Source of the DNA: Bacteroidales bacterium
Lineage (GTDB): Bacteria > Bacteroidota > Bacteroidia > Bacteroidales > FEN-979
Assembly: GCA_038244085.1 (NCBI GenBank)
Contig: JBBRTX010000001.1
Span: forward strand, 74,064 to 138,063
Length of the DNA: 64,000 nucleotides
Direction: 5' to 3'
The first letter of the stretch is position 1, and every line of letters begins with the position of its first letter. The notes below the pieces were generated by a model. It searched no databases. It was given only the letters and a program-made list of their open reading frames with translations, and was not told where the DNA came from. Shown piece by piece: positions 17,133 through 62,415 of the stretch. A program made the position numbers and the translations under genes.

Positions 17133-17133
17133 C

Positions 17134-21321: not shown

Positions 21322-21341
21322 TTTCAGCAAAATTTTTATTT

Positions 21342-23120: not shown

Positions 23121-23139
23121 ATCCTGGATAGATTATTTT

Positions 23140-23658: not shown

Positions 23659-23740
23659 AGTCCTGTTTTTATCAATTGAAAAAATTGATTCATCACTTTC
23701 CGGCCTTCGGCTTGTCACCGTCTTTCATTGTTGCCGGACA

Positions 23741-27604: not shown

Positions 27605-27869
27605 GGTAGCTACTTTCAAGGTATGGAATGAACTTTGAGGAAAGGTCGTAAAATTACATATTCTTTTCTTTCCTCCAAATTAATCGTCTAATAATTAGAG
27701 TAATACGTGTTTTACTTATTGTCTTATACGTATTATTCTAACTTTAATTAAGTATTTTTCTTATATTATTGTAAATTAAATACTTATAAAAAAATTTTAG
27801 AATAAATTATGTATTTCGAGAAAATATTTTCTTTAATATTGCTTCACATTTTCACATCCTATTTACTAA

Positions 27870-31642: not shown

Positions 31643-31651
31643 GATTAATAT

Positions 31652-32683: not shown

Positions 32684-32727
32684 CTTTATACAAATTTATA
32701 TATCGAACAATCAAACATTCGTAATTT

Positions 32728-36947: not shown

Positions 36948-37004
36948 TGAGTGATCAGGAATTAGCGATTAGGGATTGTTTGGTTAAATTCACTTTACAA
37001 GGTT

Positions 37005-47258: not shown

Positions 47259-47507
47259 TTATTCTTCCTGGACTTCCTTCTGGTCCTCTTTCTTCCTCAT
47301 TTCATAAATTTTTCGCAGACCATAAGCAGCACCCAAAGTGATAAGCACATAAACTCCGCTATCGATGGGAGCGCCCACGGGAGTCCCGCCACTTCCGGAT
47401 GGAGAACCTCCTCCGGGTGCAGGAGGGCCGGGCGGATCTGCAATTACATTCAGGGAATTCACAGCAAAAAAGGCTGTAACAATAAAGGCTAAGAAGATTT
47501 TTTTCAT
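47259..47507 (-). CDS. 82-aa mini-protein: signal peptide + Pro/Gly linker + PEP-CTERM-style tripartite sorting tail (P-I-D-S-G / TM / basic cluster)
   Basis: MKKIFLAFIVTAFFAVNSLNVIA | DPPGPPAPGGGSPSGSGGTPVGA | PIDSG | VYVLITLGAAYGL | RKIYEMRKK... The ATG at 47507 is internal to the 106-aa track ORF. The competing plus-strand ORFs have no features. Confidence 0.55.
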   Translation of the reverse strand: MKKIFLAFIVTAFFAVNSLNVIADPPGPPAPGGGSPSGSGGTPVGAPIDSGVYVLITLGAAYGLRKIYEMRKKEDQKEVQEE

Positions 47508-47686
47508 CTCTAAATTATTTTTGAATAATTGTTCAGAATTTGTCCCGAACGCATTCGGGATGGAACATCCCTCCGCCATGACGGCAGATCAATCGTGGCT
47601 TGCACCATTTGTGATTGTGAGGATATTTCATTTTTCTGTATCATTTTTTGAACGTCAACCGATTCGAACACGTCGTTCTTTGTGTT

Positions 47687-49918
47687 TCAATGTTTAATAT
47701 AGATTTTGGCACTAACAGTCCCCTTTTCTGTATAAACTTTCGCTACATAAATCCCTTCACCGGCTCCCGGATAAAATTTATTCAGTGGCGTTTTCTCAAT
47801 CCGGTTTTCATAGATTTTCCTTCCCGTCATATCAAAAATCATGATGGTGCCGGTTTGTTCGTATTCCGGTGTTGCTCTTACATAAACATCACCGTTGAAA
47901 GAATAGATACTTATGCCTTTAACTGTTTTCTGATCATCCACCCCAAAGGAAGGATTGGAGAAGTGCAATACAAAACGGTTAGGGTTTTCTTCTTTCTGGT
48001 ATGCAAAACGATAAACGGGATTTAATAACAGATCCTGAAAAGTATTCATTTTCAGATCTTCGAGGAATATTCCCATGCCTGGTTTAAAAGTGTCAAGATT
48101 TTCGGCTGTGATGTTGAAGTTCCCTGCGAAACCAACCGTAAAACCGACTGGAACCAGTGTCGTTTCTCCCGCGAATGGCCTAATATCAATTGCCAGTCGT
48201 TCCATTTCCGGTGTAGTCGAGAAAATCGAAGGAATAGAATCGCTGTTCGTCAGTTTATAGGCATCATAATGTTGATCAATGCCATTTGAAAAGCCATCCA
48301 TCAGAGAAATCGCAATATCATCGGTGAACGGTCCCCCTGAAGTTCTTAACCTGAGATAGTTTGACCATTCCGCATCTTTGTAAAAGACTGCATTATTATG
48401 GACCCGCGTCGGATTGTCACATCCAATCGTTCCTGAAGAAGTGTTTACTTTTATAAAATAGCCCTGCATTGCCGGAATATACCTGGTTGCAGTTCCTGTT
48501 GAAAGACCTGTCCCCCAGGAATAGGTGTCGTATTGGTAAGTGATCCCGTTAGCAGAAGTAAGATAATACAGCACCCGATCAACATTGGATCCCCATGTCG
48601 ACCAACCTCCCGCAGGAGATGAGAAACTACCAAAATCCTGTGCTGACGGATAAGGGTTACCGGCAAGATTCCATCCTCCTCCGCCTGAAGGCGTATAGGG
48701 GAATGATATTGACTGAGCGCCACTATTCAGACTGCCGGTAAATGACCTGCTACCCGACGAACTGCCCAGCCATACTTCATACCCTCTGAAAACTTCAAGC
48801 GGTTCGGTTGTCGTACTTATCCAAGGTCCCCAAACGTTTCCGGGTTCATTCCAGTTTCTCAGATAATCGCCTGTGAATACTGATGAAAGGGCATTTGAAA
48901 TCGGGGAAGTGATATAATGATAGGAATCCTGCGTAATATATCTTTCAACCCTCACGGATCCTCCATTCTTGTATGTGATGGTTCCTGTGTTTCTGAAAGA
49001 GCCGGTGCCGGAAGACCTTGAAGTTATCCATAGTCCGAGCGGGTTGCATATCAAAGTGTTCCCATTCACGGTTAATGGATGGTCTTTGTCAATCAGTAAC
49101 CTGGCTCCCGGATGAATACACAGGTTATAGGCTTTGCATTCTGACCCGGCAGTAGTGCCGGAAATCTGCGCAGAGGCACCGACCGTATCAAACACAGAGG
49201 TACTCACTGCCTGGGCCCAGTCAACAACGCCTCCTGCCTGCATCCAACCTTGTGAGCCGGTATAAATCCTTCCCAGCGCAAGATCGGTCAGATCCTTTCC
49301 TTCAAATAACGAAGGATCTTCATAATAGCTTGCGTAGTATGGGACAACTCCGGTGGCATATTTCTGATAGCCGTTGATTGCACTTATCTGGAAATTGACC
49401 CCTGCTGCCCCGGTAAGGGAATTTATTTTAAGATAAACTGTCCCTAATACCTGCCAGGAGGTCGTGACTTCGGCATACGCCCCGCTTGATGGGGCATTCC
49501 CATTGAAGGACATATTTCCGTAAACCGCAATGTTCAGGTTATTTGAATTCCAGTTAACCGTTGTCACATACTTATCTGCTGGCGGATCAGGAAAAGCGGA
49601 GTACTGTCCGGCAACGAAACCTTTGATGAATGACGGATTAGTGGTTGTATTGAAATTAGCGACATTCACGTTGCAGATGATCTGCGAGGAATAAAGGTAA
49701 GTTCCATTAGCGGATGCTTTCATCAGGATGTCAAAAACAAGGTAATTCACACCCGTGTTATACACGATTTTGGGATTGCTGAAGCTGAATGAAACGGTTT
49801 CCGCTGAATAAACAGAAAAGACCGAGCATAGGATAATCCCCGAACAGATGATGATCTTTTTCATTTTTTTTAGTTTAATGTTTGACATTTCCATGATCCA
49901 TGTTTTTATAAAAGTCAT
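47687..49918 (-). CDS. T9SS-sorted secreted protein of unknown function
   Basis: Signal peptide (MKKIIICSGIILCSVFSVYSAE, from the alternative ATG at 49864). C-terminal type-A Por tail ...ISIYSFNGDVYVRA...GTIMIFDMTGRKIY...GIYVAKVYTEKGTVSAKIYIKH. ATGA overlap with the upstream gene. Confidence 0.75.
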   Translation of the reverse strand: MTFIKTWIMEMSNIKLKKMKKIIICSGIILCSVFSVYSAETVSFSFSNPKIVYNTGVNYLVFDILMKASANGTYLYSSQIICNVNVANFNTTTNPSFIKGFVAGQYSAFPDPPADKYVTTVNWNSNNLNIAVYGNMSFNGNAPSSGAYAEVTTSWQVLGTVYLKINSLTGAAGVNFQISAINGYQKYATGVVPYYASYYEDPSLFEGKDLTDLALGRIYTGSQGWMQAGGVVDWAQAVSTSVFDTVGASAQISGTTAGSECKAYNLCIHPGARLLIDKDHPLTVNGNTLICNPLGLWITSRSSGTGSFRNTGTITYKNGGSVRVERYITQDSYHYITSPISNALSSVFTGDYLRNWNEPGNVWGPWISTTTEPLEVFRGYEVWLGSSSGSRSFTGSLNSGAQSISFPYTPSGGGGWNLAGNPYPSAQDFGSFSSPAGGWSTWGSNVDRVLYYLTSANGITYQYDTYSWGTGLSTGTATRYIPAMQGYFIKVNTSSGTIGCDNPTRVHNNAVFYKDAEWSNYLRLRTSGGPFTDDIAISLMDGFSNGIDQHYDAYKLTNSDSIPSIFSTTPEMERLAIDIRPFAGETTLVPVGFTVGFAGNFNITAENLDTFKPGMGIFLEDLKMNTFQDLLLNPVYRFAYQKEENPNRFVLHFSNPSFGVDDQKTVKGISIYSFNGDVYVRATPEYEQTGTIMIFDMTGRKIYENRIEKTPLNKFYPGAGEGIYVAKVYTEKGTVSAKIYIKH

Positions 49919-51411
49919 AAAACAACCAGTTTCTGAATGACACTTTTGTTCTCACAATGAATGGCCAGGAAGTAAAGACCGGGCGTCAGGTCCCGTATAT
50001 CGATGAGATAAACACTGGACTCACTTCCCTGAGAAGCATCATATTTCTTAACTAAAATGCCATCGTTTGTAAAAAAGGCCACTTTAATAGTTTTTATTGG
50101 CGCAACGGAAGATTTAAGGAGGAAATAATCCTTGGCCGGGTTGGGTATGATTTGAAATAAGGAGGACATCGGTTCGGTTGTATTAGTGGAAATAACCACA
50201 TGGAGATAATTTGAGATATCTGAACTGCATTGGTTAAGCGTCACGATATCAGAATAATTACCGGTTACACCGGGAGTGTATGATTGACCCGTAGCACCGG
50301 GTATCGGAATTTGCTCAAGTAGCCATTGATTGCCGGAGGGTGAACTTGAGGTTAGGCTGATTCCTTCCAGAGTGATAACCGGAGCAGGCGGGACCGGGTT
50401 GACGATCACTTCCGCATAACCAGATGATAGGCCGCTGCAATTGGCATCAGAAACAGAAGTAACCGTATAGAGACCGGGATCGGAAGTATAAATGAAATAA
50501 GGTGTACTATATTGGTTGCTGACTAGGGTGGTATCAAATCCATTTGAAATTTTAAAATTCCAGGGAGGGGTTCCCGTAAAGTCAGTTATGATGATAGCCG
50601 TTGAACCATCATCACACAAGCTTTCACCACCCGAAACATAGGCCGTAGGAAGTGATGAGGAGGTGACATGTAATACCGAAACTGGACCTGGTCCGCATTC
50701 GTTGACTCCGCTTACCGTAATATCTCCGGATGCGGAGTTGGATGAATAATCCACCGAGATGACATTCGTATCTGACACACCAGTTATTATTGCACCTGCA
50801 GGAACGGTCCAACTGTAACCTGTTGCGCCGGATATTGTTGCGACTTCATAAACAACATTTTCCTGTCCGGCACAAACGGCGGTTTCTCCCCAAATCTGTC
50901 CGGGAGCGTCCAAGGCTCCGCATAGCATTCCGTTAACATAATACTGAACAGTTGGGGTATCAATAAGTATGTTATTGTTTCCGTCTGAATACATGCAGGT
51001 ACCCCCAATATCAAACCAAACCAGGGAGTCATTTCCGTTAAAATAGGTGAAAATATAATTGAACAACCAGCTTCCATCGGGCAGGGTGAGGCTGTTTCCA
51101 TACCAGCCTATGACAATCCGGTGATAACCGGTTCCCAGGTCAAGATCCCCGACAGAAAAGTTGCCGCTAAGCAACGGGTTTTTGTTACACTGAACATAAT
51201 GGATTTTTGAATAATCATAATCCAGATAAAGCGTGATCGAAGCAATATTATTAAAACCGGTAATGGTAACGGGAACAGTAACCTGCTGCCCCGGAAGTAA
51301 ATTCCCGATGGTTGCGGCAGTAGTCACAGGTGCAGTCTGGGCTTTCCCTGTTGGGGAAAATCCCGGTAATAAATTCGCTGTGATCACTACAAAAAATAAA
51401 AATCGCTTCAT
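49915..51411 (-). CDS. secreted protein: cohesin-like module + Ig/PKD-like domains + T9SS C-terminal domain
   Basis: Signal peptide. Cohesin-like LLPGQQVTVPVTITGFNNIASITLYLDYDYSKIHYV...YYVNG. Ig-like GATGYSWTVPAGA...NECGPGP. Tail IPNPAKDYFLL...LTPGLYFLAIHCENKSVIQKLVVL. Confidence 0.75.
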   Translation of the reverse strand: MKRFLFFVVITANLLPGFSPTGKAQTAPVTTAATIGNLLPGQQVTVPVTITGFNNIASITLYLDYDYSKIHYVQCNKNPLLSGNFSVGDLDLGTGYHRIVIGWYGNSLTLPDGSWLFNYIFTYFNGNDSLVWFDIGGTCMYSDGNNNILIDTPTVQYYVNGMLCGALDAPGQIWGETAVCAGQENVVYEVATISGATGYSWTVPAGAIITGVSDTNVISVDYSSNSASGDITVSGVNECGPGPVSVLHVTSSSLPTAYVSGGESLCDDGSTAIIITDFTGTPPWNFKISNGFDTTLVSNQYSTPYFIYTSDPGLYTVTSVSDANCSGLSSGYAEVIVNPVPPAPVITLEGISLTSSSPSGNQWLLEQIPIPGATGQSYTPGVTGNYSDIVTLNQCSSDISNYLHVVISTNTTEPMSSLFQIIPNPAKDYFLLKSSVAPIKTIKVAFFTNDGILVKKYDASQGSESSVYLIDIRDLTPGLYFLAIHCENKSVIQKLVVL

Positions 51412-51438
51412 AATCCGGTATTGTGATGTTACTGAACC

Positions 51439-53877
51439 CTATGGTAGTGAACTGCTTCTTCCGAAGTTGACCAACCAGAAATCCGTATAATCATCCAGGT
51501 ATACTTTCCCGTTAAGATTGAAATCACTGGGGAGATATTGAATAAGACCAAAATCCCGCATCCAGAAATCCGTGTAGTCATCGATGTAAATACTTTTCGA
51601 TTGATTAGCATCTCCTGCCACCATCCCCCATTTGGATAAGGTTCCGTCAATCAGCTTATAACCGGTTGTTCCACCATATGCCTTTGCGGACCCTGTGGTA
51701 AAATCGTACAAAGCACTCCCTCCGTTCAATGTTACTGTAGCTGCACTCATGATGGCGAGATGATTACGGTGCTTGATTACCACATAATAATTTCCATAAG
51801 CAACCCCCGGGAAACGCAGGCCGGTTGTTCCATCTATATCCGTAACTGAACCATCATTTTTTAAAAATCCTGCTCTTGCGGCTACTTTGGATGAAGCCCA
51901 TGGATTGGTCCTGAGCTCTACCAGGATCCAGTCGGTGCTATTGGCAGGAATGGATGTAACTGATTCTGTTCCCGCATAATTCCATGGTGAGCCTGAATAG
52001 GGTTGTGTTAATGGCATGATGGATCCAAGCGATATCCCCATTGATCCGGACTGATAGGGCCCCTCAAGAAAAACTTTTAACTGCGCATTGAGATCAATTG
52101 AAGAATTATTCACGGTTCCATTCAGATAAAACTGGCTTTTGGGAAGGTCATAGAGTGATGGCGAAGATCCTCCTTCTGAATAACTGCATCCGCCACCATC
52201 GCACAACCACTGGATTCCACTTGTTCCTCCGTTGAAATAAAAACCAAGATTCAGAAGCGTGGCTCCATCCGTTAACCCTGCGGGTCCGCCCGACCAGACA
52301 ATGGAAAGCAATCCCGGTTCAGGATTGGATGCGGTAAATGTTCCGCCTAACGGAGCGGCAAGCGCAGTAGTCAGGTAATTCAGAACTGCAGGATCGTAAG
52401 CAAGGGTAAATGAAAAAGCACCAATGTTGCTAAAATTCCTGACCTTCACCGGAACGATGACATTCTGACCGGGATTAGCATTCACAGCCACTGCCTGTGT
52501 TACCGGAGCCAGATGTGTGCCGACAAGACCATCCTGGTAAAAATTACTGACGGGTTCTTTCCACAATGGTTTCAACCCTGTCCATTTATACATGCATGAA
52601 TCACCCCCGGTATTCCATTTCAACGCGGAAGATCCACCTCCCGTCACATTAAAGTTGAAACTGATAATTTCACTGTTGTCAGGGAGCGTCTTGGGCGACC
52701 CGGACCACGACATGGTAATCCGGCTTTTTCCGTCGGGACCCGGCGGAAGGTTATTCACTGCCATTGCACCTGCGAAGATGGAATTCACCGTATAAGCTCC
52801 GGCGGGAAGGGTCATCACCGATGCATCATAACTAAAACTCAGGGCAAGAGAAGCGATATTTGAAAAACCACTCACTTTAACAGGGACTGAAGTAGAAAGT
52901 GGGGATACCGGAGCATTGGAGATTACCGGTAACAAGGTTTTTGGTGAAACACTGCAGGCGACCAATCCGTCTTTAAAAAATGCAGACTGAGGCGTATCAT
53001 ACAACTGGTTCCATTGGACATCATTGAAGCTACATGATCCTCCATTATCATACCATGAAAGGGTTGTATACGTTTTATCCTGATTGCTAAAATTAAAATT
53101 CAGCGTACACAGTATGCTGCCATATGGGAGTGTGACGCCAAGACCTGAAAAATCCATCCAGTTGATTACCATTAATTTCCTGCTGCCTCCAATCCCCTGG
53201 GGAGAACCCACCATAAAATAGCCCGCCACAGATGGGTGAGCGACAAAAGACTGATAGGTAAGAACCGCAGTATCGTATGAAAAATACAAGGTTCCGGCCG
53301 CAATACTGGTATAATTTGTAACGGTAATGGGCACGGAGACCGTTCCGTTCTGGGCATTGTCAATATATGGCGCCTGTACGACCGGTGAGGCATAAGTGAC
53401 GACACCATTCTTATAATGATCTGTTTTGGGAAGATCATTCAATACGGTAAAAGCACCACCGGAATATTTTTTAAACAAGCAGGAACTCCCTGATGTTGCC
53501 CAGGTCAGATCTGCCACACCCGATACATAAGTAAAAGTAAGAACCACGAGATTTGAACCGTCCGGAAGGGTTACCCCATAGGTGCCGGTCCAGGTAATGG
53601 TGATTGTGCCCGGCGTACTGCCGTTAATGGTAAGACTACCAAACACGGCATTTCCTGTTCCACCCTGATAGGTGACCTTTGAAACCGGGTAATTCATTGT
53701 GAGCTGAAAATAACCGATATCGGTAAAGGATTTTACACTGACAGGGATCGTGACCGCGGAAAAGGTTTTGGCAGCATAAAGGGCGGATCCGGAGGAAACG
53801 ACCGGTGCATCTTGTGAAAAAGACGCTGCTGCAAATAACCAGAAAAGACCAAGTAATAAGGCGGTTTTTGTTTTCAT
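51439..53877 (-). CDS. scaffoldin-like secreted protein: 4 tandem cohesin-like modules + LEGPY/HRNH beta domain + C-terminal dockerin-like pair, no T9SS tail
   Basis: The start is set at MKTKTALLLGLFWLFAAASFSQ (ATG 53877), because the track ATG at 53943 lies in the loop of the upstream terminator. Module 4 reads NPGQNVIVPVKVRNFSNIGAFSFTLAYDPAVLNY...FYLNG. The C-terminus reads GDANQSKSIYIDDYTDFW...SDFNLNGKVYLDDYTDFW. Confidence 0.75.
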   Translation of the reverse strand: MKTKTALLLGLFWLFAAASFSQDAPVVSSGSALYAAKTFSAVTIPVSVKSFTDIGYFQLTMNYPVSKVTYQGGTGNAVFGSLTINGSTPGTITITWTGTYGVTLPDGSNLVVLTFTYVSGVADLTWATSGSSCLFKKYSGGAFTVLNDLPKTDHYKNGVVTYASPVVQAPYIDNAQNGTVSVPITVTNYTSIAAGTLYFSYDTAVLTYQSFVAHPSVAGYFMVGSPQGIGGSRKLMVINWMDFSGLGVTLPYGSILCTLNFNFSNQDKTYTTLSWYDNGGSCSFNDVQWNQLYDTPQSAFFKDGLVACSVSPKTLLPVISNAPVSPLSTSVPVKVSGFSNIASLALSFSYDASVMTLPAGAYTVNSIFAGAMAVNNLPPGPDGKSRITMSWSGSPKTLPDNSEIISFNFNVTGGGSSALKWNTGGDSCMYKWTGLKPLWKEPVSNFYQDGLVGTHLAPVTQAVAVNANPGQNVIVPVKVRNFSNIGAFSFTLAYDPAVLNYLTTALAAPLGGTFTASNPEPGLLSIVWSGGPAGLTDGATLLNLGFYFNGGTSGIQWLCDGGGCSYSEGGSSPSLYDLPKSQFYLNGTVNNSSIDLNAQLKVFLEGPYQSGSMGISLGSIMPLTQPYSGSPWNYAGTESVTSIPANSTDWILVELRTNPWASSKVAARAGFLKNDGSVTDIDGTTGLRFPGVAYGNYYVVIKHRNHLAIMSAATVTLNGGSALYDFTTGSAKAYGGTTGYKLIDGTLSKWGMVAGDANQSKSIYIDDYTDFWMRDFGLIQYLPSDFNLNGKVYLDDYTDFWLVNFGRSSSLP
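52105..53805 (-). repeat. four tandem ~140-aa cohesin-like coding repeats
   Basis: Each unit has (V/I)xVP(V/I)xVxxF(T/S)xI(G/A)xxxLxxxY(D/P)xxV(L/M)x(Y/L) near its start and (F/H)Y(K/Q/L)(N/D)G near its end. ORF residues 47-185, 186-330, 331-477 and 478-613. Confidence 0.7.
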
Positions 53878-53927
53878 GATAATGACGGGTAGAGGTATGA
53901 CATCAGGAAATTTTAAAACAAAAAATT

Positions 53928-53961
53928 GAAAAGAGGGGAGCATGACACTCCCCTCTTTTTC
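53928..53961 (-). terminator. rho-independent terminator after the 1895-aa gene
   Basis: A perfect 12-bp stem, AAAAGAGGGGAG (53929-53940) / CTCCCCTCTTTT (53948-53959), with a 7-nt loop. On the minus strand it is followed by CAATTTTTTGTTTT and begins 6 nt after the TAA. Confidence 0.65.
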
Positions 53962-53966
53962 AGGTT

Positions 53967-56900
53967 TTATTTATTCACCACAATTTTAATGGTTCTAAGC
54001 AATTCGTCAGTTCCGTTTTTGAACTTCAGAACAGCCATGTAGATTCCGGAAGGCATCTGTGTGGATGCCAGTTTCACGTTATGCTTGCCACTTGCCTGTG
54101 GTTCATTCACATAGGTAGCGATAACCTGGCCAACCATGTTCATAATCTCAAGTGTGACTTCTCCGCTTTCGGGGAGCGTATAACTGATGGTAGAGTAATC
54201 CTTGAAAGGATTTGGATGACAATTCAGCGAGAAATCCTTACCGTTCGGATCAATGATACCGACAGGTGAATTTGCTATGACCTCAACGCCGAGTTGAGCA
54301 TGCGGAATGACCATTGCATCGGCATCAGCCAGTTCGTTCAAAGGATCACCAGCCAGCGTTAACCGGAAAGTGCTTCCTTCAACGAATGCGGAAGTAGTCT
54401 TCAGTTTCAGGATCACCACTGCATCGGTTTCTGCAACCTGCATTGATGTTTCCGAATACCAGCTGATCTTCAGCACATTGTCATTTACACTATAACTTAC
54501 CGGGGAATTACTGCCTGTTACGGTTACATCTTTAACTTCCACCAGGTCTGACGGAACATTAAGGACGAGAGAAACAGCGCTCAGACCCATGGCGGTTGTG
54601 GCATAAACCGGGAGTTCAAATTCCTGACCGGCTCCCACGTTCCTTGTGGATCCATAGGTAATTTCGAGGTTCTCAGTTTCGGCCTTTGCAGATCCGGGAA
54701 TGTAGCTCTCGTTAAAGTCTCCGGTAACACCTGCCAGAAGATCAATGTTAACGAGGTCGGCTGATGCAAGAAGCTTCACAAACCAGGTCAGTGGAGGAGC
54801 GGGTATCTGGGTGTTTAACATATCACCTTTCTTCCAATATGACCATGGAGCGCGGGTAAACGGCGTTCCTGAAACAAAGAACTGCTGAATGCGCAAAGCA
54901 TCAAAACCGGTAAGGAGATTATCGTTAGTAACGTCACCCTGCAGGAAACGGCTGTGCTGAATTGGGAACAGGATGGTCGGCCAAATGAGCACCTGTGCGG
55001 CATCTGTAGAGTTTATACCACCAACGGGTTTATTGTTTTGTGTGACGATAACGGTATAATCTCCTGCACAAAGGTTTGTGAAAGAATACTGCCCTGATGC
55101 ATTGGTCGTCGCAGTCTGAATAGGAACGGTTCCGGGAACTGGTACCAAACCAACTCCGACATTACTCATCGTCGTGGTATAGCAGTTCGGATACGTGATG
55201 GTACCGGAGAGATTCCTGAAGACTACCGTAACCGTCTTGCAACAGTTAGAGAAGCAACCGGTTTGCGGATCTGTCGTTTTAAGACACAGCGTAAAGGTTC
55301 CTGCGCCCAGCGCTGTAACATTCACAGTTTGCTGGATAGCAGATCCTATGATCGTTCCATTGCCGGAAATGGTCCAGAGGTAGTTCAGACCTGACGGACC
55401 GGTATACACGTTGTTCAGCGCTCCCGGGCAAACATAACTTTCACCAGTGATCAGACACGATGGATTCCTGTTGAAGGTTATATGAATCGGGATATCCAGT
55501 GAAGTACAATTGTAGATATCCTTGATGGAACCTGTAAAGGTATAGTTGTCCGGAGGATAATCGCCGGGAACCGTTAACATGGGTTCTCCTGTATTACCTG
55601 CAACCCAGTATTGCAAACCATCAACCAGTTTATAATCGGTTCCTACCTTCTTAACATAGAAGAATGGAGCATTACCATTGATGATCAGCCACATCTGTCC
55701 CTGCCATCCTGTAGCGCCTGCAACAACACCTCTGGCTGCCCAGTAAGCAAAGTAAGCAGCAGCATTCGGCACGTTGGTCAGCTTGAAAGGATTGAGGAAA
55801 TTATCCATTAAAGGCTGGGTAGCGGTGAGCGTATTAATATCAAGGTAATAGCTCGGTACAGCAGGATCAAGACACATGTTGTAGTTCATACAGAGTCCAT
55901 TCATCTCAATCCAGGGGCCTGTACCAACCATAAATTGCAAGGTGGCGCACTCAAGAATAGGAAGTGGGTGAACGATCACTGTCTTACTGCAAATTCCGTA
56001 GCAGTTATTGCGATAGATCTCGTCAGTTACTGTGTAGGAATCTTCACTTCCGGCAAGAATCGTTACGGTAGCAAGCGTATGCGAACCAATAATGATTCCA
56101 TGACCTGTTACATTCCAGTGATGGGTTACAGTTCCGCCTGCTGGCAGCACTGTGCTGGTATGCGTGTTGGTGGATCCCTGGCAAACAGATATCGGACCAT
56201 CAATTGAACAGGTTGGAATTGCGCTTACCTGTACCGTTTTGGTGCAGGAACTGGCACAACCATTCCGGGTGATATTGTCGGTAAGTGTGAATGGGCCATC
56301 AACCAGACCGGCAATAATGTCGACAGTAGCTGTGTTGTTTGCGCCATTAATGGTTCCGTTTCCGGTGATAGACCATAAATGGGTTACGGTTCCGCCTGCG
56401 GGTAATACCGTAGAGGTATAACTCCCGGCAGATCCTCCGCAAACATTGGCATCACCTGCGATGGAGCATGTCGGAATTGGATTTACCGTTACTGTTTTGC
56501 TGCATGACCCCGGGCATCCGTTACGTGTAATCGCGTCTGTCACGGTGTATGTCCCGGCAGCTGTTGCAGTAACAGTTACTGATGAACCTGTAAGTCCTGA
56601 AGTGATCGTTCCGTTGCCGGTGATTGACCATGAATGGGTTACGATTCCGCCGGCAGGAAGGACAACATTTGCATATACATTTCCTGTTGAAAGTGCACAA
56701 ACGGCATCTGGTCCATCGATGGTGCAGGTCGGATTAGGATTAACAACTACTGTAATACAGCATGAACTGGCACAACCATTGCGTACAATATTGTCGCAAA
56801 GGGTGAAGGTTCCTTCTGCATTCGTTGTTGTATGAATCATTACACTGGCATCCGTTGTTGATCCAACAATGGTTGCAGCACCTGTGATTGTCCAGGCATG

Positions 56901-59654
56901 TGTAACAGTTCCCAATGCCGGGAGAACCGTGCTTGTATAGGTATAATTTCCCTGGAGGCTGTAGCAAACAGGATTTGGTCCGGCTATGCTGCAGGTCGGA
57001 ATTGGATTAACAGTAACCGTCTTGCAGCATGTCTGAACTGCAGTACATCCATCGCGTGTTACCAACAAGCAAAGGGTGTAACTTCCGGATACTCCTGCAA
57101 CTACATTTACCGTGGATGCATTTGTGGCTCCGCTGATGGAACCATTTCCTGTAATCGACCAGGAATAGGTACCAGTGGTATAACCCACAGGCAGGATAGC
57201 ACCTGAATAAACATTGGTAGTTCCTCCGCATACCGGATCAGGACCGGTGATTTGGCAGGTCGGTATGGGTTTTACAATTACCGTCTTGTTGCATGTTCCC
57301 GGGCAATTATTCCTGGTAATGGCATCGGTAACGATATATTGACCCGTAGCACCTGCGAGTACTGTAACAGAGGCAGTATTGGTTGCTCCTTGTATCGTAC
57401 CATTGCCTGTGATGCTCCATGAGTGGGTAACAATTCCACCTGCCGGAAGCACAACATTTGCGTGCGTGTTGGTTGAATTACCGCAAACGGCATCAGGACC
57501 ATCAATTGTACAGGTTGGATTGGGATTTACTGTTACAATAACACTGCATGAACTCGGGCAGTCATTACGAACGATATCATCCTGAACAGTATAAGTTCCG
57601 GATGCACCGGCAATAACGATGAGGGTAGCACTTGTATGACCTCCGCTGATCGTTCCGTTACCGGTTAAAGTCCAATGATGTGTGACCACTCCTCCAGACG
57701 GAAGTACCGTGCTGGTGTAAGTATTGGTTGTTGCACCGCAAACCGCAAGTGGTCCCGCAATGGAACAAGTCGGCATCGGGTTGACGATGACTGTTTTACT
57801 TTTTACACCCGGACATCCCTCGCGGGTAAAGTTATCGGTGATGGTAAAGGTACCTGATGCACCTGCACGAACCCTCACAATGGGTTCTGTCCAGAACCAA
57901 ACAATCTCGTTACCGTTTCCGAGCATAACTCCGTCACCGGTGATCGTCCAGTAATGTGTCTCTGTTCCGAGAAGCGGGAGGACAAAGATATCATATTCAT
58001 TAATCGTTCCGCCGCATACAGGATCAGGACCGCTGATGGTAGCCGTCGGTGTTTCTTTAACAAGAACTGTTCTTATACAAAATCCCGGACAGCCATTACG
58101 GACAATATTATCCGTGAGGATATAAAGGCCATCATCACCGGCAATTACGTTAACTGTAGCAAGGTTGGTTGGTCCGCTGATGGTTCCATTGCCTGTGATT
58201 GACCAGGAATGGGTTACCGTTCCGTCGAGCGGATTCACTACAGATGTATAGAGGTTAGTTGTTCTTTCACATACATCACCAGGACCTTCTATTGCACAAA
58301 TTGGGTTGGGATTAACAATTACCGTCTTGCTGCAGGTTCCGGCACAACCGTTCCTTGTCAGATTGTCAGTAACTGTATAGGAACCGGAGAGGCCAGCATG
58401 AACGTTAACAGTAGCCAGGTTGGTGGCACCGTTAATCGTCCCGTTTCCTGTGATGGTCCATGAATGTACTACGGTTCCGCCTGCAGGAAGCACGGTGCTT
58501 GTATGGTTATTATACGAAAGTCCGCATACTGCCGAAGGTCCGTCAATTGTACAGGTCGGGTTTTTATTTACCACAACTGTCTTGGAGCACCATCCGGCGC
58601 ATCCATCCCGGTTGACCGCATCGGTGATCGTAAAAGATCCGTCACCGACACCGGCAAGAACTGTTACCGTTGAGCCGTCACTAGCACCGACAATTGTGCC
58701 ATCACCAGTAATGGTCCATGAATGAGTAACCGTACCTCCATCCGGAAGAACACCGGAAGAGTAAGTATTGGTTGTAAGACCGCAAACCGGAGCAGGCCCG
58801 GTGATTGTACAGGTTGGATTTGGTTTAACTACAATCGTGACTGGTACAGAGTCAACACAGCCAAAACCATCCTTTACCTTGAAGTATAAAAGGTATTCAC
58901 CGGCATTCGGGGAAGTAAAATAAGGATTTGAAATGGTTGTACTGTTAAGATAAACAGCACCGGGTCCCGACCATTTATAGGTGTATGGGAACGCAGTTGT
59001 ATTGTGCTGTCCAATCAGTTGCAGGGGTGCATACTGACAAGTCGTATAAGGGGGATTTACCCATGCATTCAGTAAGCTTGCGCGGCCATTTACGTAGTTG
59101 GCTGCTGCCTGGCATAGAATATCACTGCCGAAAGCAAGAACCTGGGCTGCATTGGAATAAGCGGATTGATAAACATCCCAGTTCAAAGCGGTCACACCAC
59201 CACCCGGTGGCAGAAAGTTGAAGGTGAGATTGAAGATAACTTGTCCGTCATTCAGGAACCACCCGCTGCCAAGCGTGAAAGCAGGATATGTCCATGAAAT
59301 TGTAACGGAGCCGGGGCCATTGGGCTGACCAACCATTGGGGCTGGAAACCCGGAAGGAAGATTGGGTGCCGTTATCACTCCTGCGAATTGCAGTACAGTC
59401 GGATCGAAATCAAACTTGAGAGAAATAGCGGCAATATCCGCAAAATTGACCCCGCTGTTCGTTATCGGAACAACAATTGTCCCGGCCTGCTGAACGCAAA
59501 TAAACGGGAGCTGGGTGATCGGTGCACAACCCGTGCATGGACAACACCCTATAAATTGGCCCGGGACACCACAGGGTCCTTGGGCTGAAACCATGTTAAT
59601 GCCGGTTATCAGCATCAGCAAGGTTACAAGGATAGGTAATAATTTCGTTTTCAT
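53967..59654 (-). CDS. 1895-aa T9SS-sorted surface protein: Cys cluster, cohesin-like module, 12 Cys-framed Ig-like repeats, CarboxypepD_reg-like + dockerin-like segment, second cohesin-like module, Por tail
   Basis: Signal peptide MKTKLLPILVTLLMLITGINMVSAQ. Cohesin-like GTIVVPITNSGVNFADIAAISLKFDFDPTVLQF. Second cohesin-like GQEFELPVYATTAMGLSAVSLVLNVPSDLVEV. Tail HPNPFKDYSTISYTL...SGIYMAVLKFKNGTDELLRTIKIVVNK. Confidence 0.85.
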   Translation of the reverse strand: MKTKLLPILVTLLMLITGINMVSAQGPCGVPGQFIGCCPCTGCAPITQLPFICVQQAGTIVVPITNSGVNFADIAAISLKFDFDPTVLQFAGVITAPNLPSGFPAPMVGQPNGPGSVTISWTYPAFTLGSGWFLNDGQVIFNLTFNFLPPGGGVTALNWDVYQSAYSNAAQVLAFGSDILCQAAANYVNGRASLLNAWVNPPYTTCQYAPLQLIGQHNTTAFPYTYKWSGPGAVYLNSTTISNPYFTSPNAGEYLLYFKVKDGFGCVDSVPVTIVVKPNPTCTITGPAPVCGLTTNTYSSGVLPDGGTVTHSWTITGDGTIVGASDGSTVTVLAGVGDGSFTITDAVNRDGCAGWCSKTVVVNKNPTCTIDGPSAVCGLSYNNHTSTVLPAGGTVVHSWTITGNGTINGATNLATVNVHAGLSGSYTVTDNLTRNGCAGTCSKTVIVNPNPICAIEGPGDVCERTTNLYTSVVNPLDGTVTHSWSITGNGTISGPTNLATVNVIAGDDGLYILTDNIVRNGCPGFCIRTVLVKETPTATISGPDPVCGGTINEYDIFVLPLLGTETHYWTITGDGVMLGNGNEIVWFWTEPIVRVRAGASGTFTITDNFTREGCPGVKSKTVIVNPMPTCSIAGPLAVCGATTNTYTSTVLPSGGVVTHHWTLTGNGTISGGHTSATLIVIAGASGTYTVQDDIVRNDCPSSCSVIVTVNPNPTCTIDGPDAVCGNSTNTHANVVLPAGGIVTHSWSITGNGTIQGATNTASVTVLAGATGQYIVTDAITRNNCPGTCNKTVIVKPIPTCQITGPDPVCGGTTNVYSGAILPVGYTTGTYSWSITGNGSISGATNASTVNVVAGVSGSYTLCLLVTRDGCTAVQTCCKTVTVNPIPTCSIAGPNPVCYSLQGNYTYTSTVLPALGTVTHAWTITGAATIVGSTTDASVMIHTTTNAEGTFTLCDNIVRNGCASSCCITVVVNPNPTCTIDGPDAVCALSTGNVYANVVLPAGGIVTHSWSITGNGTITSGLTGSSVTVTATAAGTYTVTDAITRNGCPGSCSKTVTVNPIPTCSIAGDANVCGGSAGSYTSTVLPAGGTVTHLWSITGNGTINGANNTATVDIIAGLVDGPFTLTDNITRNGCASSCTKTVQVSAIPTCSIDGPISVCQGSTNTHTSTVLPAGGTVTHHWNVTGHGIIIGSHTLATVTILAGSEDSYTVTDEIYRNNCYGICSKTVIVHPLPILECATLQFMVGTGPWIEMNGLCMNYNMCLDPAVPSYYLDINTLTATQPLMDNFLNPFKLTNVPNAAAYFAYWAARGVVAGATGWQGQMWLIINGNAPFFYVKKVGTDYKLVDGLQYWVAGNTGEPMLTVPGDYPPDNYTFTGSIKDIYNCTSLDIPIHITFNRNPSCLITGESYVCPGALNNVYTGPSGLNYLWTISGNGTIIGSAIQQTVNVTALGAGTFTLCLKTTDPQTGCFSNCCKTVTVVFRNLSGTITYPNCYTTTMSNVGVGLVPVPGTVPIQTATTNASGQYSFTNLCAGDYTVIVTQNNKPVGGINSTDAAQVLIWPTILFPIQHSRFLQGDVTNDNLLTGFDALRIQQFFVSGTPFTRAPWSYWKKGDMLNTQIPAPPLTWFVKLLASADLVNIDLLAGVTGDFNESYIPGSAKAETENLEITYGSTRNVGAGQEFELPVYATTAMGLSAVSLVLNVPSDLVEVKDVTVTGSNSPVSYSVNDNVLKISWYSETSMQVAETDAVVILKLKTTSAFVEGSTFRLTLAGDPLNELADADAMVIPHAQLGVEVIANSPVGIIDPNGKDFSLNCHPNPFKDYSTISYTLPESGEVTLEIMNMVGQVIATYVNEPQASGKHNVKLASTQMPSGIYMAVLKFKNGTDELLRTIKIVVNK
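55956..58811 (-). repeat. 11 tandem coding repeats of 85-92 aa (255-276 bp), with a 12th diverged copy at 55218-55457
   Basis: Consensus C(T/S)I.GP..VCG..TN.Y.S.VLPAGG.VTHSW.ITGNGTI.GA.N..TV.V.AG..G.YTVTD.I.RNGC.G.CSKTV.VNPNPT. Boundaries come from residue counting (residues 282-1233). Copies differ at many synonymous sites. Confidence 0.85.
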
Positions 59655-59866
59655 AATTTTCGATTTTTGATTGTGTCAATCGTACATTTGCAGCGCAGCA
59701 AACCGATTTCGCAGGGTTAAACGGGGGAATCTCTTGTCCGTTTACGCGCCTTTCCGCATGTCCAAACACAGGTCTTCCTGCATTTGACGGAATGGCAAAC
59801 TGGGGTAAATAATGAATCCATTTTCCTGAAGATTAAGGAACCCATGCGACGCAGACGACGCGGATC

Positions 59867-59908
59867 CGTGTTTGGGCAATCCCTTTTACAAACATTAATC
59901 CAAACACG
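59867..59908. promoter_or_regulatory. 9-bp perfect inverted repeat CGTGTTTGG-N24-CCAAACACG in the leader of the 1895-aa gene (candidate activator site)
   Basis: Arms at 59867-59875 and 59900-59908. A third CCAAACAC copy lies at 59762-59769. GCAAACTG also occurs twice (59795-59802 and 59908-59915). The sites lie 108-254 nt upstream of the ATG. Confidence 0.3.
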
Positions 59909-60147
59909 CAAACTGCTGATATTCAGAACGTATGATAATCGTAGGTGAAATACAGGGTGATCATTTCCGGGCAATTGGAAGCAACAAAATTCCGCAAATA
60001 AAGCAACAAAGCCTGTTAGCAGCGATTTGCCCGAATATGGGCAGATGTCCGGTTTAAAAGTTAGTCCCTTGACCTGGATACGAAATACATAAAAGGGGCA
60101 AAAGCCGGCTGGCCCTCACCCGAAAAGAAAAAAACGTGAAATTGAAT

Positions 60148-61524
60148 CTAGAAAACAATCTGAAGCTTCATGATCCGGCGATCCAAAGCTTGTCTTGAAA
60201 TAGATAGAAGCCTGGCAGCTTCCGATTTGTTGTTTTTTGTCTGTGTAAGTGCCTGAATGATGGTTTTCTTCTCCACATCAAACAAATTCAACGATAACTG
60301 GGCCTGAATGCTTCCATTCCGGTCAGCCGTCCGTTGACCATCAAACCGGAAATTTTTCAGTGTCAGTTTGTTTTCATCAGACATGATCACGGCACCTTCA
60401 ACAAGATTTCTCAGTTCCCGCACATTCCCCGGGAATGAATAGGCCATGAGCCTTTCCATGGCGCGGTCATCAATGGGTTTTGCCGCCTTGTTCATTCTTG
60501 CGGAAATAACAGAAACATAATGATTTAACAGAACAGGGATATCCACTTTTCTTTCCCTCAGTGGCGGAATATGTATATGAAAAGCGTGTAACCGGTGGTA
60601 GAGATCTTCCCTGAACATCTTTTTCTCGATCAGTTTGTGAAGATCCTGGTTGGTGGCAGAGATAATCCGCAGATTCAGATTGACTTCCTGATGTGAACCG
60701 ATCTTATGAATGGTCTTGTCATCCAGTACCCTCAAGAATTTAGATTGCATGCACAACGGCAATTCCGTGATCTCATCAAGAAACAATGTACCCTTGTTGG
60801 CCATCTCGAACCATCCGATGGATTTCTCAATCGCCCCGGTAAAGGCACCTTTTATATGACCAAAGAACTCGCTTTCAAAAAGGCTATCGGGTATGGCCGA
60901 GCAGTTTACAGCATGAAAGGCATGAGACTGACGGTTACTCAGGGCATGAATGCCTCTGGCCACCAGTTCTTTGCCGGTACCGCTTTCTCCTGTGATCATG
61001 ACAGAAGTGTCTTCGGCCTGGGAAACAAGAAGGATAAGACTGGCGATGGTTTTAATGGAAGTGCTCGCCCCGATGATTTGCGGACCGGACTTCAGCCTGG
61101 ACTCATTTATAAAATGCTGAAAGTTCAGATCCAGTTGATTTGAATGATTCCGGAATTTTAAAAATGACCTGGTCTGCTCAAGTGCAGCCTTCAATTCAGG
61201 AAAATGCAATGTTCCGCATAGGGAATCAGAAAGTCCGTATTTAAAAGGTTTCAAGGATTTCTCACCGCTGCTCTCCGGATCGACCACCAGCATCTCCAGA
61301 TCCGGGAATCCTGATTTCAGGCTTCTGATAAAGTTTGTCGCTGAGCCATTAATATGCGTCAAATCAAGAAGTATGATATCAATATTGGTTTCACGAAGTA
61401 TCTGAACGGCAGTGACAGGATCAGCGGTATGATGCAACACAACTTCTTCAGGGAGGTTATATCCCCGAATCTGTTCGGTTAAAGAGCCATGCCCCTCTAA
61501 AACTAACAACTTTATCCTGTTCAT
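60148..61524 (-). CDS. sigma54-dependent transcriptional activator (NtrC family: receiver + AAA+ + Fis-type HTH)
   Basis: Walker A GESGTGKELVARGIH, an intact sigma54-contact loop GAFTGA, Walker B LFLDEITEL, and C-terminal NKSEAARLLSISRQALDRRI. The receiver has LVLEGHG in place of the usual acidic pair. The start is set at the ATG at 61524. Confidence 0.85.
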   Translation of the reverse strand: MNRIKLLVLEGHGSLTEQIRGYNLPEEVVLHHTADPVTAVQILRETNIDIILLDLTHINGSATNFIRSLKSGFPDLEMLVVDPESSGEKSLKPFKYGLSDSLCGTLHFPELKAALEQTRSFLKFRNHSNQLDLNFQHFINESRLKSGPQIIGASTSIKTIASLILLVSQAEDTSVMITGESGTGKELVARGIHALSNRQSHAFHAVNCSAIPDSLFESEFFGHIKGAFTGAIEKSIGWFEMANKGTLFLDEITELPLCMQSKFLRVLDDKTIHKIGSHQEVNLNLRIISATNQDLHKLIEKKMFREDLYHRLHAFHIHIPPLRERKVDIPVLLNHYVSVISARMNKAAKPIDDRAMERLMAYSFPGNVRELRNLVEGAVIMSDENKLTLKNFRFDGQRTADRNGSIQAQLSLNLFDVEKKTIIQALTQTKNNKSEAARLLSISRQALDRRIMKLQIVF

Positions 61525-61664
61525 TGCTCTAAATAAAATCTGATTGACCCCAAGCACTATTCCAGAAAAGTGCTTTTATGAAAATTTCAGCGTACCAAAG
61601 CTAACCCGAAGTATTGCGTAAGGCAAGAGTAAAAAGGCTGAAATTTATTAGGCTAAAAACCCAT

Positions 61665-61709
61665 AGGTATAAATACCTTATCCCCAGTATTTATACTTAG
61701 CGTATATAC
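61665..61709. promoter_or_regulatory. cluster of three GTAT-Nx-ATAC palindromes between the LuxR-type gene and the sigma54 activator gene
   Basis: AGGTATAAATACCT (61665-61678), AGTATTTATACT (61686-61697) and GTATATAC (61702-61709). Confidence 0.25.
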
Positions 61710-61731
61710 ACATATATAACGGGGTTTATTG

Positions 61732-62415
61732 CTATACCTGAAGGCTGGATTTCAACATTTCATCAGGTAGGAGGAGGTTGTGAACAATGGCGAAACGCAT
61801 CAGATGGGCTGAATTCCTGGCCCCGAACTTAATCAGCAGGTTATTGCGATAACCATCAACTGTTCGTTTGCTCAGATGGAGCAGCTCCCCTATTTCCTTA
61901 TCGGAAAATCCAAGGCTTATAAGACTCAGTACTTCCTTTTCTCTTCGGGAGAGGATTACATCCGATTCAACGAAGTTGTTGCTGCTTAATAAGGAAGTAT
62001 TATCTTCCTGGCTGATTTTTGTCGAGATATAAAATCTTCCTTCCGTCACATTATGAAGACCATGGAGAAATTCATGCCGGTCGGCCGTCTGGTTCATGAT
62101 CCCGCAGATATTTGAATCAAAAACATTACCGGGGTTAATCCCCAGGCCTTCATCACACAAACAGATCACCCTGATACACTTGATTTTCATGACCTCATTA
62201 AAAATCGGTCTGAGACATCGAACCGTACTGATAAGGATTCCCTTTTGGTGTTCCTGGATGACCAAATTCATTTCCTCCCAGGATCCGGTTGAATGAATAA
62301 TTTTATAATCGGGTTCCGACAAAATCCATTGCCGTATACCCTCAAGAATCACAGGCCGGTCCTCAAGAATAAATAATTTTATCGCCTTTGGATTAATCTT
62401 TTCCTCTCGTTTCAC
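61732..62415 (-). CDS. LuxR/FixJ-type response regulator with atypical receiver
   Basis: C-terminal HTH LSRREKEVLSLISLGFSDKEIGELLHLSKRTVDGYRNNLLIKFG. The N-terminal receiver-like fold starts KLFILEDRPVILEG, but I see no clear phospho-acceptor Asp context. GTG start. Confidence 0.7.
   Translation of the reverse strand: MKREEKINPKAIKLFILEDRPVILEGIRQWILSEPDYKIIHSTGSWEEMNLVIQEHQKGILISTVRCLRPIFNEVMKIKCIRVICLCDEGLGINPGNVFDSNICGIMNQTADRHEFLHGLHNVTEGRFYISTKISQEDNTSLLSSNNFVESDVILSRREKEVLSLISLGFSDKEIGELLHLSKRTVDGYRNNLLIKFGARNSAHLMRFAIVHNLLLPDEMLKSSLQV

Follow-up and report, generated by a model that had tools for sequence, protein, structure and literature searches.

A conserved Bacteroidales gene cassette of cohesin and dockerin proteins as a candidate surface docking platform anchored by type IX secretion

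Introduction

Cohesin–dockerin assembly is textbook knowledge for Gram-positive cellulosomes, whose scaffoldins are encoded in clusters such as cipA-olpB-orf2p-olpA of Clostridium thermocellum and scaC-scaA-scaB-cttA-scaE of Ruminococcus flavefaciens. In Bacteroidota and the wider Fibrobacteres–Chlorobi–Bacteroidetes (FCB) group, assembly of this kind has so far merely been hinted at by genome annotation. Here we describe a 15-kb locus, the minus-strand open reading frames (ORFs) at positions 47259-62415 of a 64-kb stretch of contig JBBRTX010000001.1 from a Bacteroidales bacterium; the whole 64-kb stretch is called the window below. The locus provides a concrete and conserved parts list: cohesin carriers anchored by a type IX secretion system (T9SS) C-terminal domain (CTD), an adaptor that lacks such a CTD and ends in an X-module–dockerin (X-Doc) dyad, a RemA-like adhesin and a PID-CTERM miniprotein. 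We lean, on balance, towards reading it as the Bacteroidales counterpart of a scaffoldin cluster, a cassette that would build a cohesin–dockerin docking platform on the outer surface with T9SS CTDs as its anchors. The genes of the locus are as follows.

61732-62415, minus strand: LuxR/GerE regulator (Pfam/NCBIfam)
60148-61557, minus strand: sigma54 enhancer-binding protein (EBP), with GAFTGA at amino acids (aa) 237-242
53967-59654, minus strand: g1, 1895 aa (ORF)
51439-53877, minus strand: g2, 812 aa from the MKTKT start (834 aa as the longer ORF reading)
49915-51411, minus strand: g3, 498 aa (ORF)
47687-49918, minus strand: g4, 743 aa (ORF)
47259-47579, minus strand: ORF of the PID-CTERM miniprotein, probably 82 aa with its start at 47507

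The clostridial and ruminococcal scaffoldin clusters resemble this locus in several respects. They encode cohesin carriers only and no enzymes; they include a tandem-cohesin protein ending in an X-Doc dyad, which here is g2 (compare 2b59, 4u3s, 4wi0, 3kcp and 4fl4), and proteins with one or two cohesins and a signal for covalent surface anchoring, the design of g3 being like that of ScaE; and their dockerin-tagged partners are encoded elsewhere. The ruminococcal cluster also has an adhesin gene within it, cttA, in whose place g4 is found here. In contrast to those systems, the present one belongs to a Gram-negative member of the Bacteroidales with an outer membrane to cross, it carries the T9SS type-A CTD in place of SLH or LPXTG anchors, and it has no carbohydrate-binding module (CBM). 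The partners found for it to date are chiefly peptidases and proteins that resemble adhesins or lectins, not cellulases, and one X-Doc family is found on both scaffoldin and cargo, whereas the Gram-positive systems use distinct type I and type II dockerins.

Cohesin- and dockerin-like modules reportedly occur outside cellulosomes as well, mostly as isolated modules, and Peer and colleagues are said to have described such cases in 2009, the Archaeoglobus fulgidus cohesin 2xdh among them. Like our locus, those modules occur outside cellulolytic organisms, and 2xdh is the best match of the family profile of the C-terminal cohesin of g1. The present case differs in that seven cohesins and two dockerins stand together in one conserved cassette, accompanied by a family of tagged proteins that spans the genome.

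In Cloacimonadota (Ca. Stygibacter), Williams et al. (2021) inferred from genomes a 'cellulosome-like' T9SS-CTD scaffoldin together with dockerin-tagged enzymes of families GH18, GH57, S8 and C25 (PMC8542988). That system, which also lies in the FCB superphylum and is likewise a genome inference, has in common with ours a non-catalytic tandem-cohesin protein with a T9SS CTD, and signal-peptide enzymes with C-terminal dockerins, S8 and C25 included. It differs in having a single scaffoldin of 3,755 aa with CBM2/CBM3 and the CTD on one chain, and no X-module, CTD-less adaptor, multi-gene cassette, RemA-like partner or PID-CTERM partner is described for it (PMC8542988). Given this precedent, the original prediction made for the locus from its letters alone, which had recognised no described system of the kind, was overstated. 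Rumen surveys recorded scattered Bacteroidetes dockerins only (PMC6487960). Compared with RemA and RemZ, g4 is half the size, has another N-terminal domain and sits in a cohesin cassette. In the literature searched we found no description of the cassette, of an FCB-wide X-Doc tag or of a link to RemA-like or PID-CTERM proteins. Part of the concept, the T9SS-anchored scaffoldin, has published precedent.

Results

Gene content of the locus

The coordinates predicted for the four consecutive minus-strand ORFs were borne out, and an independent, second public assembly of the locus contains the same genes, with g4 called as 735 aa, the small ORF as 82 aa and a different start codon for the LuxR gene. 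The genes g2, g3 and g4 are closely packed, with a gap of 27 nt between g2 and g3 followed by an ATGA overlap of the g4 start with the g3 stop. No match to plasmids was obtained when the 15-kb locus was searched by megablast. DnaX similarity places the host among uncultured Bacteroidales, its best match, at 72% identity, being a metagenome-assembled genome from permafrost, peat or a lake. Pfam found no enzyme domain in g1–g4, and the window ORFs that were scanned included no histidine kinase, in agreement with the earlier statements that the locus encodes no glycoside hydrolase (GH) or other enzyme and that the window has no histidine kinase. Four elements treated below had been missed: the X-module, the homology of g4 to RemA and RemZ, the PID-CTERM miniprotein, although it lies within the predicted coordinates, and a conserved terminator between g1 and g2.

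Seven cohesin modules in g1, g2 and g3

The cohesins form two subfamilies, alpha and beta, and are distributed over three of the proteins.

59085-59537, minus strand: g1 N-terminal cohesin, subfamily alpha, aa ~40-190 (PF00963; 31% identical to g2 module 4)
54267-54674, minus strand: g1 C-terminal cohesin, subfamily beta, aa ~1661-1796, directly before the CTD (profile, Foldseek, hhalign)
53395-53811, 52954-53391, 52522-52944 and 52105-52512, minus strand: the four g2 cohesins, subfamily alpha (PF00963)
50917-51339, minus strand: g3 cohesin, subfamily alpha (phmmer against the g2 modules)

Against the Pfam Cohesin model PF00963, whose gathering threshold is 24.1 bits, g2 scored 90.4 bits (E 1.5e-25) in four stretches and the N-terminal module of g1 27.9 bits (aa 57-145), both above threshold, whereas g3, with 22.5 bits, fell slightly below it. 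In phmmer, the g3 cohesin was homologous to every one of the four modules of g2 (E 5.9e-55). In the module alignment, the six modules of subfamily alpha share 31-36% identity and the motifs TLPDGS and GGxCxY. The subfamily-beta cohesin of g1 is divergent, with 16% identity to alpha, but hhalign still related the two with 94% probability (E 1.3e-7), and its family profile matched the A. fulgidus cohesin 2xdh_A (E 1.5e-6). In its AlphaFold2 (AF2) model, this module is predicted as a nine-stranded jelly roll with a predicted local distance difference test (pLDDT) score of ~90-97 over the module, and Foldseek aligned it to solved cohesins with TM 0.62-0.68 (2vn5_A and 1g1k_A 0.68, 2xdh 0.64; also 5nrm_A). 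This fold check covers the g1 C-terminal cohesin, and the support for subfamily alpha is at the level of sequence. A direct search of g2 against the PDB gave weak matches to cohesins 5nrm and 3l8q. The count of seven, two in g1, four in g2 and one in g3, which had originally been made by eye, is therefore correct by PF00963, phmmer, family profile and AF2/Foldseek taken together. The N-terminal domain of g4 was considered as an eighth cohesin and ruled out (hhalign probability <1%).

A predicted X-module–dockerin dyad at the end of g2

The protein g2 consists of a signal peptide, four cohesins and a C-terminal X-Doc unit, and it carries no T9SS tail; NCBIfam gave no match on g2.

~51628-52095, minus strand: g2 X-module, transthyretin/Ig-like beta-sandwich (AF2, Foldseek)
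51442-51627, minus strand: g2 dockerin with calcium loops DANQSKSIYIDD (aa 756-767) and DFNLNGKVYLDD (aa 785-796)

In the AF2 prediction, the C-terminal 218 aa of g2 form a single rigid unit (pLDDT 97.6, predicted TM score (pTM) 0.93), in which a beta-sandwich is followed by two helices (171-181 and 200-210). The top seven PDB matches of this model in Foldseek were chains of type-II cohesin/X-Doc complexes, including 4u3s_B, 4wi0_B, 4fl4, 3kcp and 2b59_B, with E 1.3e-5 and TMt 0.62 for 4u3s_B. In the model the X-module packs against the dockerin at the C-terminus of the scaffoldin, the arrangement of a type-II-style X-Doc dyad. Since identity between the g2 X-module and clostridial X-modules is 12-20%, the likeness is structural and common descent is not established. 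An alignment of 71 X-Doc sequences gave the consensus loops GDxNxDGxIxxxD and DFNLDGxVxxxD, with calcium-loop positions 1, 3, 5 and 12 conserved at 87-100%, and all 17 PDB matches of the resulting family profile were cellulosomal dockerins. The Pfam Dockerin_1 model was matched by 13 of the 71 members (best 2.3e-9). Four cohesins combined with an X-Doc unit indicate that g2, as modelled, is built like a primary or adaptor scaffoldin.

The X-Doc dyad as a C-terminal tag

The 218-aa unit of g2 forms the very C-terminal end of a large number of proteins; among GTDB genomes it gave 227 genomic matches across Bacteroidales, Lentimicrobiaceae, Chitinophagales, Ignavibacteria, Chlorobiota and Calditrichia. 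The fetched loci contained 122 X-Doc ORFs of about 230 to 3,170 residues (as open frames), seen in L006-L084 with up to five per locus. An exhaustive search with a hidden Markov model (HMM) returned 17,291 cluster representatives (50% identity) at E<=1e-3, of which 8,582 reached E<=1e-30, and the match was nearly always C-terminal. This constancy of position on about 17,000 unrelated clusters is the behaviour of a tag. Of the X-Doc proteins with a recognisable signal peptide, 60 of 61 have a signal of the signal peptidase I (SPI) type without a lipobox, and none of the X-Doc proteins carries a Por tail after the dockerin. A lipoprotein route for these proteins was ruled out by the same 60 of 61 signals. 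The X-Doc dyad is a general C-terminal tag of Sec-exported proteins in the FCB group.

To describe the tagged proteins, the N-terminal parts of 80 X-Doc proteins were compared with Pfam; the domains given here are from the 25 most frequent of 76 families. Cohesin was found 8 times, GEVED 6, FG-GAP 5, and PKD, Laminin_G_3 and Beta_helix 4 times each, along with BNR and BACON. Peptidases were represented by Peptidase_M14 (3), Peptidase_C25 (2), Peptidase_S8 (1) and Peptidase_M4 (1), and the carbohydrate-related domains among those listed were accessory only (GH43_C2, BACON, Laminin_G_3). Cellulosomes combine a CBM-bearing scaffoldin with dockerin-bearing GHs; here g1–g4 contain neither CBM nor GH, and the enzymes among the listed domains of the 80 proteins are mainly peptidases. 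The original prediction had concluded from the lack of enzymes that the locus is not a cellulosome. The observation holds for g1–g4, but the inference is weak, because clostridial and ruminococcal scaffoldin clusters are also free of enzymes and the tagged partners, peptidases among them, are encoded elsewhere. No Pfam or NCBIfam model covers the X-module, and the precomputed Pfam column is blank for most members of the family. The X-Doc module therefore merits a family model of its own whether or not binding is ever confirmed, since thousands of 'hypothetical' C-termini would gain an annotation.

The stalk protein g1 and its dockerin

The T9SS cargo protein g1 has a signal peptide, the N-terminal cohesin described above, a long stalk and a conserved C-terminal module of 430 aa.

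55977-58841, minus strand: eleven tandem Cys-rich PKD_6-like repeats of ~86 aa, aa 272-1226 (PF19408 E 4.5e-23; jackhmmer repeat map)
55482-55976, minus strand: Cys-containing insert of 165 aa, aa 1227-1391, which interrupts the repeat array
55230-55481, minus strand: twelfth PKD_6-like repeat (jackhmmer repeat map)
54864-55220, minus strand: SdrD_B/transthyretin-like beta-sandwich, aa 1479-1541, then dockerin, aa 1545-1597 (family profile)
53970-54230, minus strand: T9SS type-A CTD (TIGR04183; PF18962, 38 bits on the isolated module)

The 165-aa insert had no Pfam match even at E<=10. In the C-terminal module, an SdrD_B/transthyretin-like sandwich is followed by the dockerin, and a beta linker then leads to the subfamily-beta cohesin and the type-A CTD. 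Searched directly, g1 had no match in the PDB by phmmer, whereas the family profile of the module matched the dockerins 1daq (3.5e-6) and 4uyq (8.7e-6), more weakly the X-Doc structures 4wi0/4u3s (0.004), and with its other parts SdrD B-type domains (SdrD 3.6e-11), one cohesin and CTDs. Dockerin_1 was matched by six of the 13 members of the g1-module family (best 5.1e-8), and PF18962 (Por_Secre_tail) by all 13. Used on its own as a genome query, the C-terminal module of g1 gave one match, to the CTD only.

The AF2 model of the module reached pLDDT 88.7 and pTM 0.72, with helices at 84-96, 102-108 and 118-130 and a single weak linker, which lies before the CTD. A pTM of 0.72 despite this flexible linker suggests that the dockerin and the adjoining subfamily-beta cohesin are held in a fixed arrangement in g1. 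None of the HMMs built from X-Doc, from the dockerin only or from the X part only detected the g1 dockerin, indicating that the g1 and g2 dockerins are different subtypes; hhalign compared the sandwich–dockerin unit of g1 with X-Doc at 40% probability.

Two dockerin-like segments had been proposed for the locus. Both are upheld by family HMM and profile matches, by their loops and by AF2, but the window copies themselves do not reach Pfam PF00404 (Dockerin_1), whose gathering threshold is 22.9 bits: g1 scored 15.3 bits (E 0.023) and g2 had no match. Both identifications depend on their families matching Dockerin_1 and PDB dockerins. Of the duplicated F-hand, two 12-residue calcium loops (D1, N/D3, D/N/S5, D12) with their helices, both loops are intact in g2, whereas in g1 the first loop is degenerate (GGINSTD) and only the second (DVTNDNLLTGFD) is canonical.

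A conserved cassette with a terminator after g1

To ask how far the neighbourhood is conserved, 84 related loci were compared, as the original prediction had recommended. The cassette of g1–g4 and the PID-CTERM (PID) gene recurs in many Bacteroidales metagenome-assembled genomes (MAGs), and the adjacent regulators do not. The conserved unit is g1–terminator–g2–g3–g4–miniprotein, with five genes; in related loci a g1-like gene comes first and a g2-like gene second, then any additional X-Doc genes, which are optional, and after them genes like g3 and g4 and the PID gene. The g1-like genes vary at the N-terminus and are conserved in the C-terminal module, and at least 13 loci have the 430-aa module directly upstream of a g2-like gene. 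The minimal core, found in L001, is g1 and g2. Downstream of g2-like genes, a g3-like gene was found in L003, L005, L006 and one JGI contig; g4-like genes occur in 12 related loci; and the PID gene follows a g4-like gene in six other loci (L003, L006, L011, L013, L026 and L044). Cohesin HMM matches were confined to 17 of the sources searched, 16 fetched loci and the window, and almost every one of these is a cassette locus.

An intrinsic terminator separates the first gene of the cassette from the others.

53929-53959, minus strand: intrinsic terminator hairpin, 14-bp stem and T-run, between g1 and g2

Equivalent GC-rich hairpins of 13-19 bp with T-runs follow the stop codon of the g1-like gene in L001 (~9920-9960), L003, L005, L006 and L007, so that the terminator has the same position in six loci, the window included, with different sequences. 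Conservation of its position suggests separate expression of g1, or a level of expression unlike that of g2–g4.

These data bear on the simplest alternative, that the proteins are independent T9SS adhesins without intermolecular assembly, clustered by a common role in adhesion, their modules being beta-sandwich or EF-hand spacers or units that bind carbohydrate or calcium. Consistent with it, the dockerins of the window miss the Pfam threshold, g1 consists mostly of PKD-like stalk repeats as many adhesins do, the g1 dockerin may find its partner in cis, as the pTM of 0.72 would allow, and cohesins and dockerins without an assigned function are widespread outside cellulosomes, as indicated in passages of PMC6487960 and PMC8542988. 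Yet such adhesins would leave unexplained why a CTD-less protein with four cohesins and an X-Doc unit is the invariant partner of a g1-type gene, why X-Doc keeps strictly to the C-terminus in about 17,000 unrelated clusters, and why the residues of its calcium loops are conserved at 87-100%. We consider this alternative unlikely.

T9SS tails, the RemA-like protein g4 and the miniprotein

As predicted, three of the four proteins end in T9SS type-A tails: g1 (30.3 bits), g3 (31.0 bits) and g4 (24.3 bits) are all above the TIGR04183 cut-off of 23 bits, and g2 has no match.

50665-50910, minus strand: g3 PKD_6 domain (Pfam)
49918-50151, minus strand: g3 T9SS type-A CTD (TIGR04183)
49229-49807, minus strand: g4 conserved N-terminal domain, aa ~38-230
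47690-47893, minus strand: g4 type-A CTD (TIGR04183; RemA, RemZ and gingipain CTDs align with the g4 family)

With a signal peptide, one cohesin, PKD_6, Ig-like domains and the CTD, g3 resembles an anchoring scaffoldin. In g4, an N-terminal domain of ~200 aa precedes a ~450-aa region homologous to RemA/RemZ and the type-A CTD. The profile of the g4 family matched RemA (8gl6_D, 1.7e-47), RemZ (8gl8_D, 1e-42), Mfa5 (6to1_A, 5.9e-14) and gingipain CTDs in the PDB, and the homology covers the C-terminal ~500 aa of RemA/RemZ of Flavobacterium johnsoniae, CTD included. RemA and RemZ are T9SS gliding adhesins of that organism (PMC10994853). The N-terminal domain of g4 found no relative in Pfam (E<=10), in the PDB profile search or by hhalign against cohesins, and this end of the protein may bind the ligand.

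The homology of g4 raises the alternative that the cassette is a gliding or surface-adhesin module, a mobile complex like that of RemA/SprB in which cohesin–dockerin contacts join adhesin subunits rather than enzymes. In addition to g4, the presence of GldF and GldG genes in the window and the long, repeat-rich nature of the T9SS protein g1 speak for it. However, no lectin domain was detected in g4, for whose N-terminal domain no relative was found; L001, L002 and L005 have the g1–g2 core without g4; the X-Doc tag also occurs on peptidases; and the GldF and GldG genes are ~10 kb away with unrelated genes between. These findings make a gliding module distinctly improbable. The genes for GldG (E 1.3e-192) and GldF (E 2.1e-95), components of an ABC transporter associated with gliding, at 35169-37736 on the minus strand, adjoin a glycosyltransferase/flippase cluster at 29400-34062.

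The miniprotein runs from a signal peptide through some 30 aa rich in Pro and Gly and the motif VGAPIDSG to a transmembrane helix and a basic tail (RKIYEMRKK). It scored 32.5 bits against NF046080 (cut-off 26) and carries PF28310 in precomputed calls. Among the window ORFs scanned no sorting enzyme for PID-CTERM was identified, and PID-CTERM was not found mentioned in the literature searched.

A candidate docking platform on the outer surface

The core of the original prediction, a non-cellulosomal cohesin–dockerin surface assembly made from T9SS cargo, is supported, and it is strengthened because g2 combines four cohesins with an X-Doc unit and because the cassette recurs in many Bacteroidales MAGs. 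In the scaffoldin-cluster reading that we favour, the T9SS would export g1 and g3, and the CTD pathway would attach them to the surface, as established T9SS biology would have it. The X-Doc unit of g2 would then plug, in a calcium-dependent manner, into a cohesin of g1, g3 or another g2, and the free cohesins of g2 would capture X-Doc-tagged proteins encoded elsewhere, multiplying the docking sites. Because g2 and its clients carry the same X-Doc family, docking of g2 on g2 would be possible and could yield a branched network. Candidate clients are the M14, C25, S8 and M4 peptidases and proteins of the lectin, beta-helix and FG-GAP types. Within g1, the internal dockerin may pack on the subfamily-beta cohesin in cis, an intramolecular clasp that would give the stalk a rigid base, and the terminator after g1 would uncouple expression of g1 from that of g2–g3–g4.

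Several points weigh against this picture. The largest gap is topology: g2 and the other X-Doc proteins have neither a CTD nor a lipobox and so no known route across the outer membrane in a T9SS organism. Co-export of X-Doc proteins bound to CTD-bearing cohesin carriers could be envisaged and is purely speculative. Both dockerin segments of the window are below the Pfam threshold, and the first calcium loop of the g1 dockerin is degenerate. The cassette is also not uniform, with L001 lacking g3, g4 and PID, and the g2-like protein of L003 lacking X-Doc. Finally, cohesin- and dockerin-like modules outside cellulosomes occur without demonstrated pairing, according to the passages of PMC8542988 and PMC6487960 that cite Peer et al. 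(2009).

If the pairing is true, it would explain how many CTD-less secreted proteins are displayed in abundant anaerobes of sediment, peat and freshwater, it would turn the crossing of the outer membrane into a testable question, and it would provide new orthogonal cohesin–dockerin pairs for protein engineering. A broader proposal, to be taken as tentative and rather doubtful, is that the X-Doc dyad is an FCB-wide 'hitch-hiker' or surface-retention signal, by which thousands of Sec-exported proteins lacking CTD and lipobox would reach the surface and be kept there through docking, possibly already in the periplasm, on cohesins of CTD-bearing carriers such as g1 and g3. Were this so, the cassette would be a dedicated receptor and amplifier, adding a second, cohesin-mediated tier to T9SS-dependent secretion and forming a Gram-negative analogue of the cellulosome scaffold for general display of the exoproteome.

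Adjacent regulators and promoters

The two genes upstream of g1 on the same strand had been predicted to encode an NtrC-type sigma54 activator with an intact GAFTGA loop and a LuxR-type regulator, and both were confirmed by HMM. The same prediction saw the locus as headed by them, and g1–g4 could accordingly be an operon under their control, for which the common strand, the position immediately upstream and the intact GAFTGA speak. Using the consensus TGGCAC-N5-TTGCW (-24/-12), we found no element with <=2 mismatches in the intergenic regions, including those upstream of g1 and g2, the best GG-N10-GC core there matching 6/11 bases. Matches with <=2 mismatches in the window were at chance level (25 observed, 27.9 expected). 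Moreover, a terminator-like hairpin follows the EBP gene (60096-60121), the EBP and LuxR genes each have a TAnnTTTG -7 box of their own, and a near-consensus Bacteroidetes sigma-A -7 box (TACGATTG) lies 30 nt upstream of the ATG of g1. An EBP homologue was present in 0 of the 84 related loci, and LuxR had one distant match among them, in L070, which is not a cassette locus. With no -24/-12 element, a hairpin after EBP, separate boxes and no conserved linkage, we regard the EBP and LuxR genes as adjacent in position alone and not as the head of the locus, and control of the cassette by them as very improbable.

The sole one-mismatch match to the sigma54 consensus (56768-56783, plus strand) was ruled out as a promoter, being antisense within the g1 repeats. 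Near-consensus strings (TGGCACAACC[A/G]TT[G/C]C) recur antisense in these repeats at 56252-56267, 56768-56783 and 58340-58355 (plus strand); they arise from the repeated coding sequence and are not promoters. By eye, the receiver domains of both regulators are degenerate, the EBP having LVLEGHG instead of the acidic pair (Response_reg 14.3 bits) and LuxR apparently being without the phospho-acceptor Asp. Degenerate receivers would fit regulators that work independently of phosphorylation, and likewise the lack of a kinase nearby. Divergent from the LuxR gene, a gene for an outer-membrane protein of the Omp85 family lies at ~62608-64000 on the plus strand and runs past the end of the window (L166, 1-1336); the second assembly has it in the same divergent position.

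Other genes of the window

Two further groups of genes stand out. At 14148-27619 on the minus strand, two very large PPDK_N proteins, one of 994 aa with a weak receiver domain and one of 1292 aa, flank a redox block in an unusual arrangement; the block encodes NuoE- and NuoF-like proteins, rubrerythrin and a 1238-aa protein in which a 2Fe-2S domain is fused to pyridine-nucleotide-disulphide oxidoreductase and molybdopterin oxidoreductase domains. At 8253-12187 on the plus strand, a sigma factor of the extracytoplasmic function type (Sigma70_r2) is followed by a 251-aa protein without a Pfam match and an 881-aa TPR-CHAT protein.

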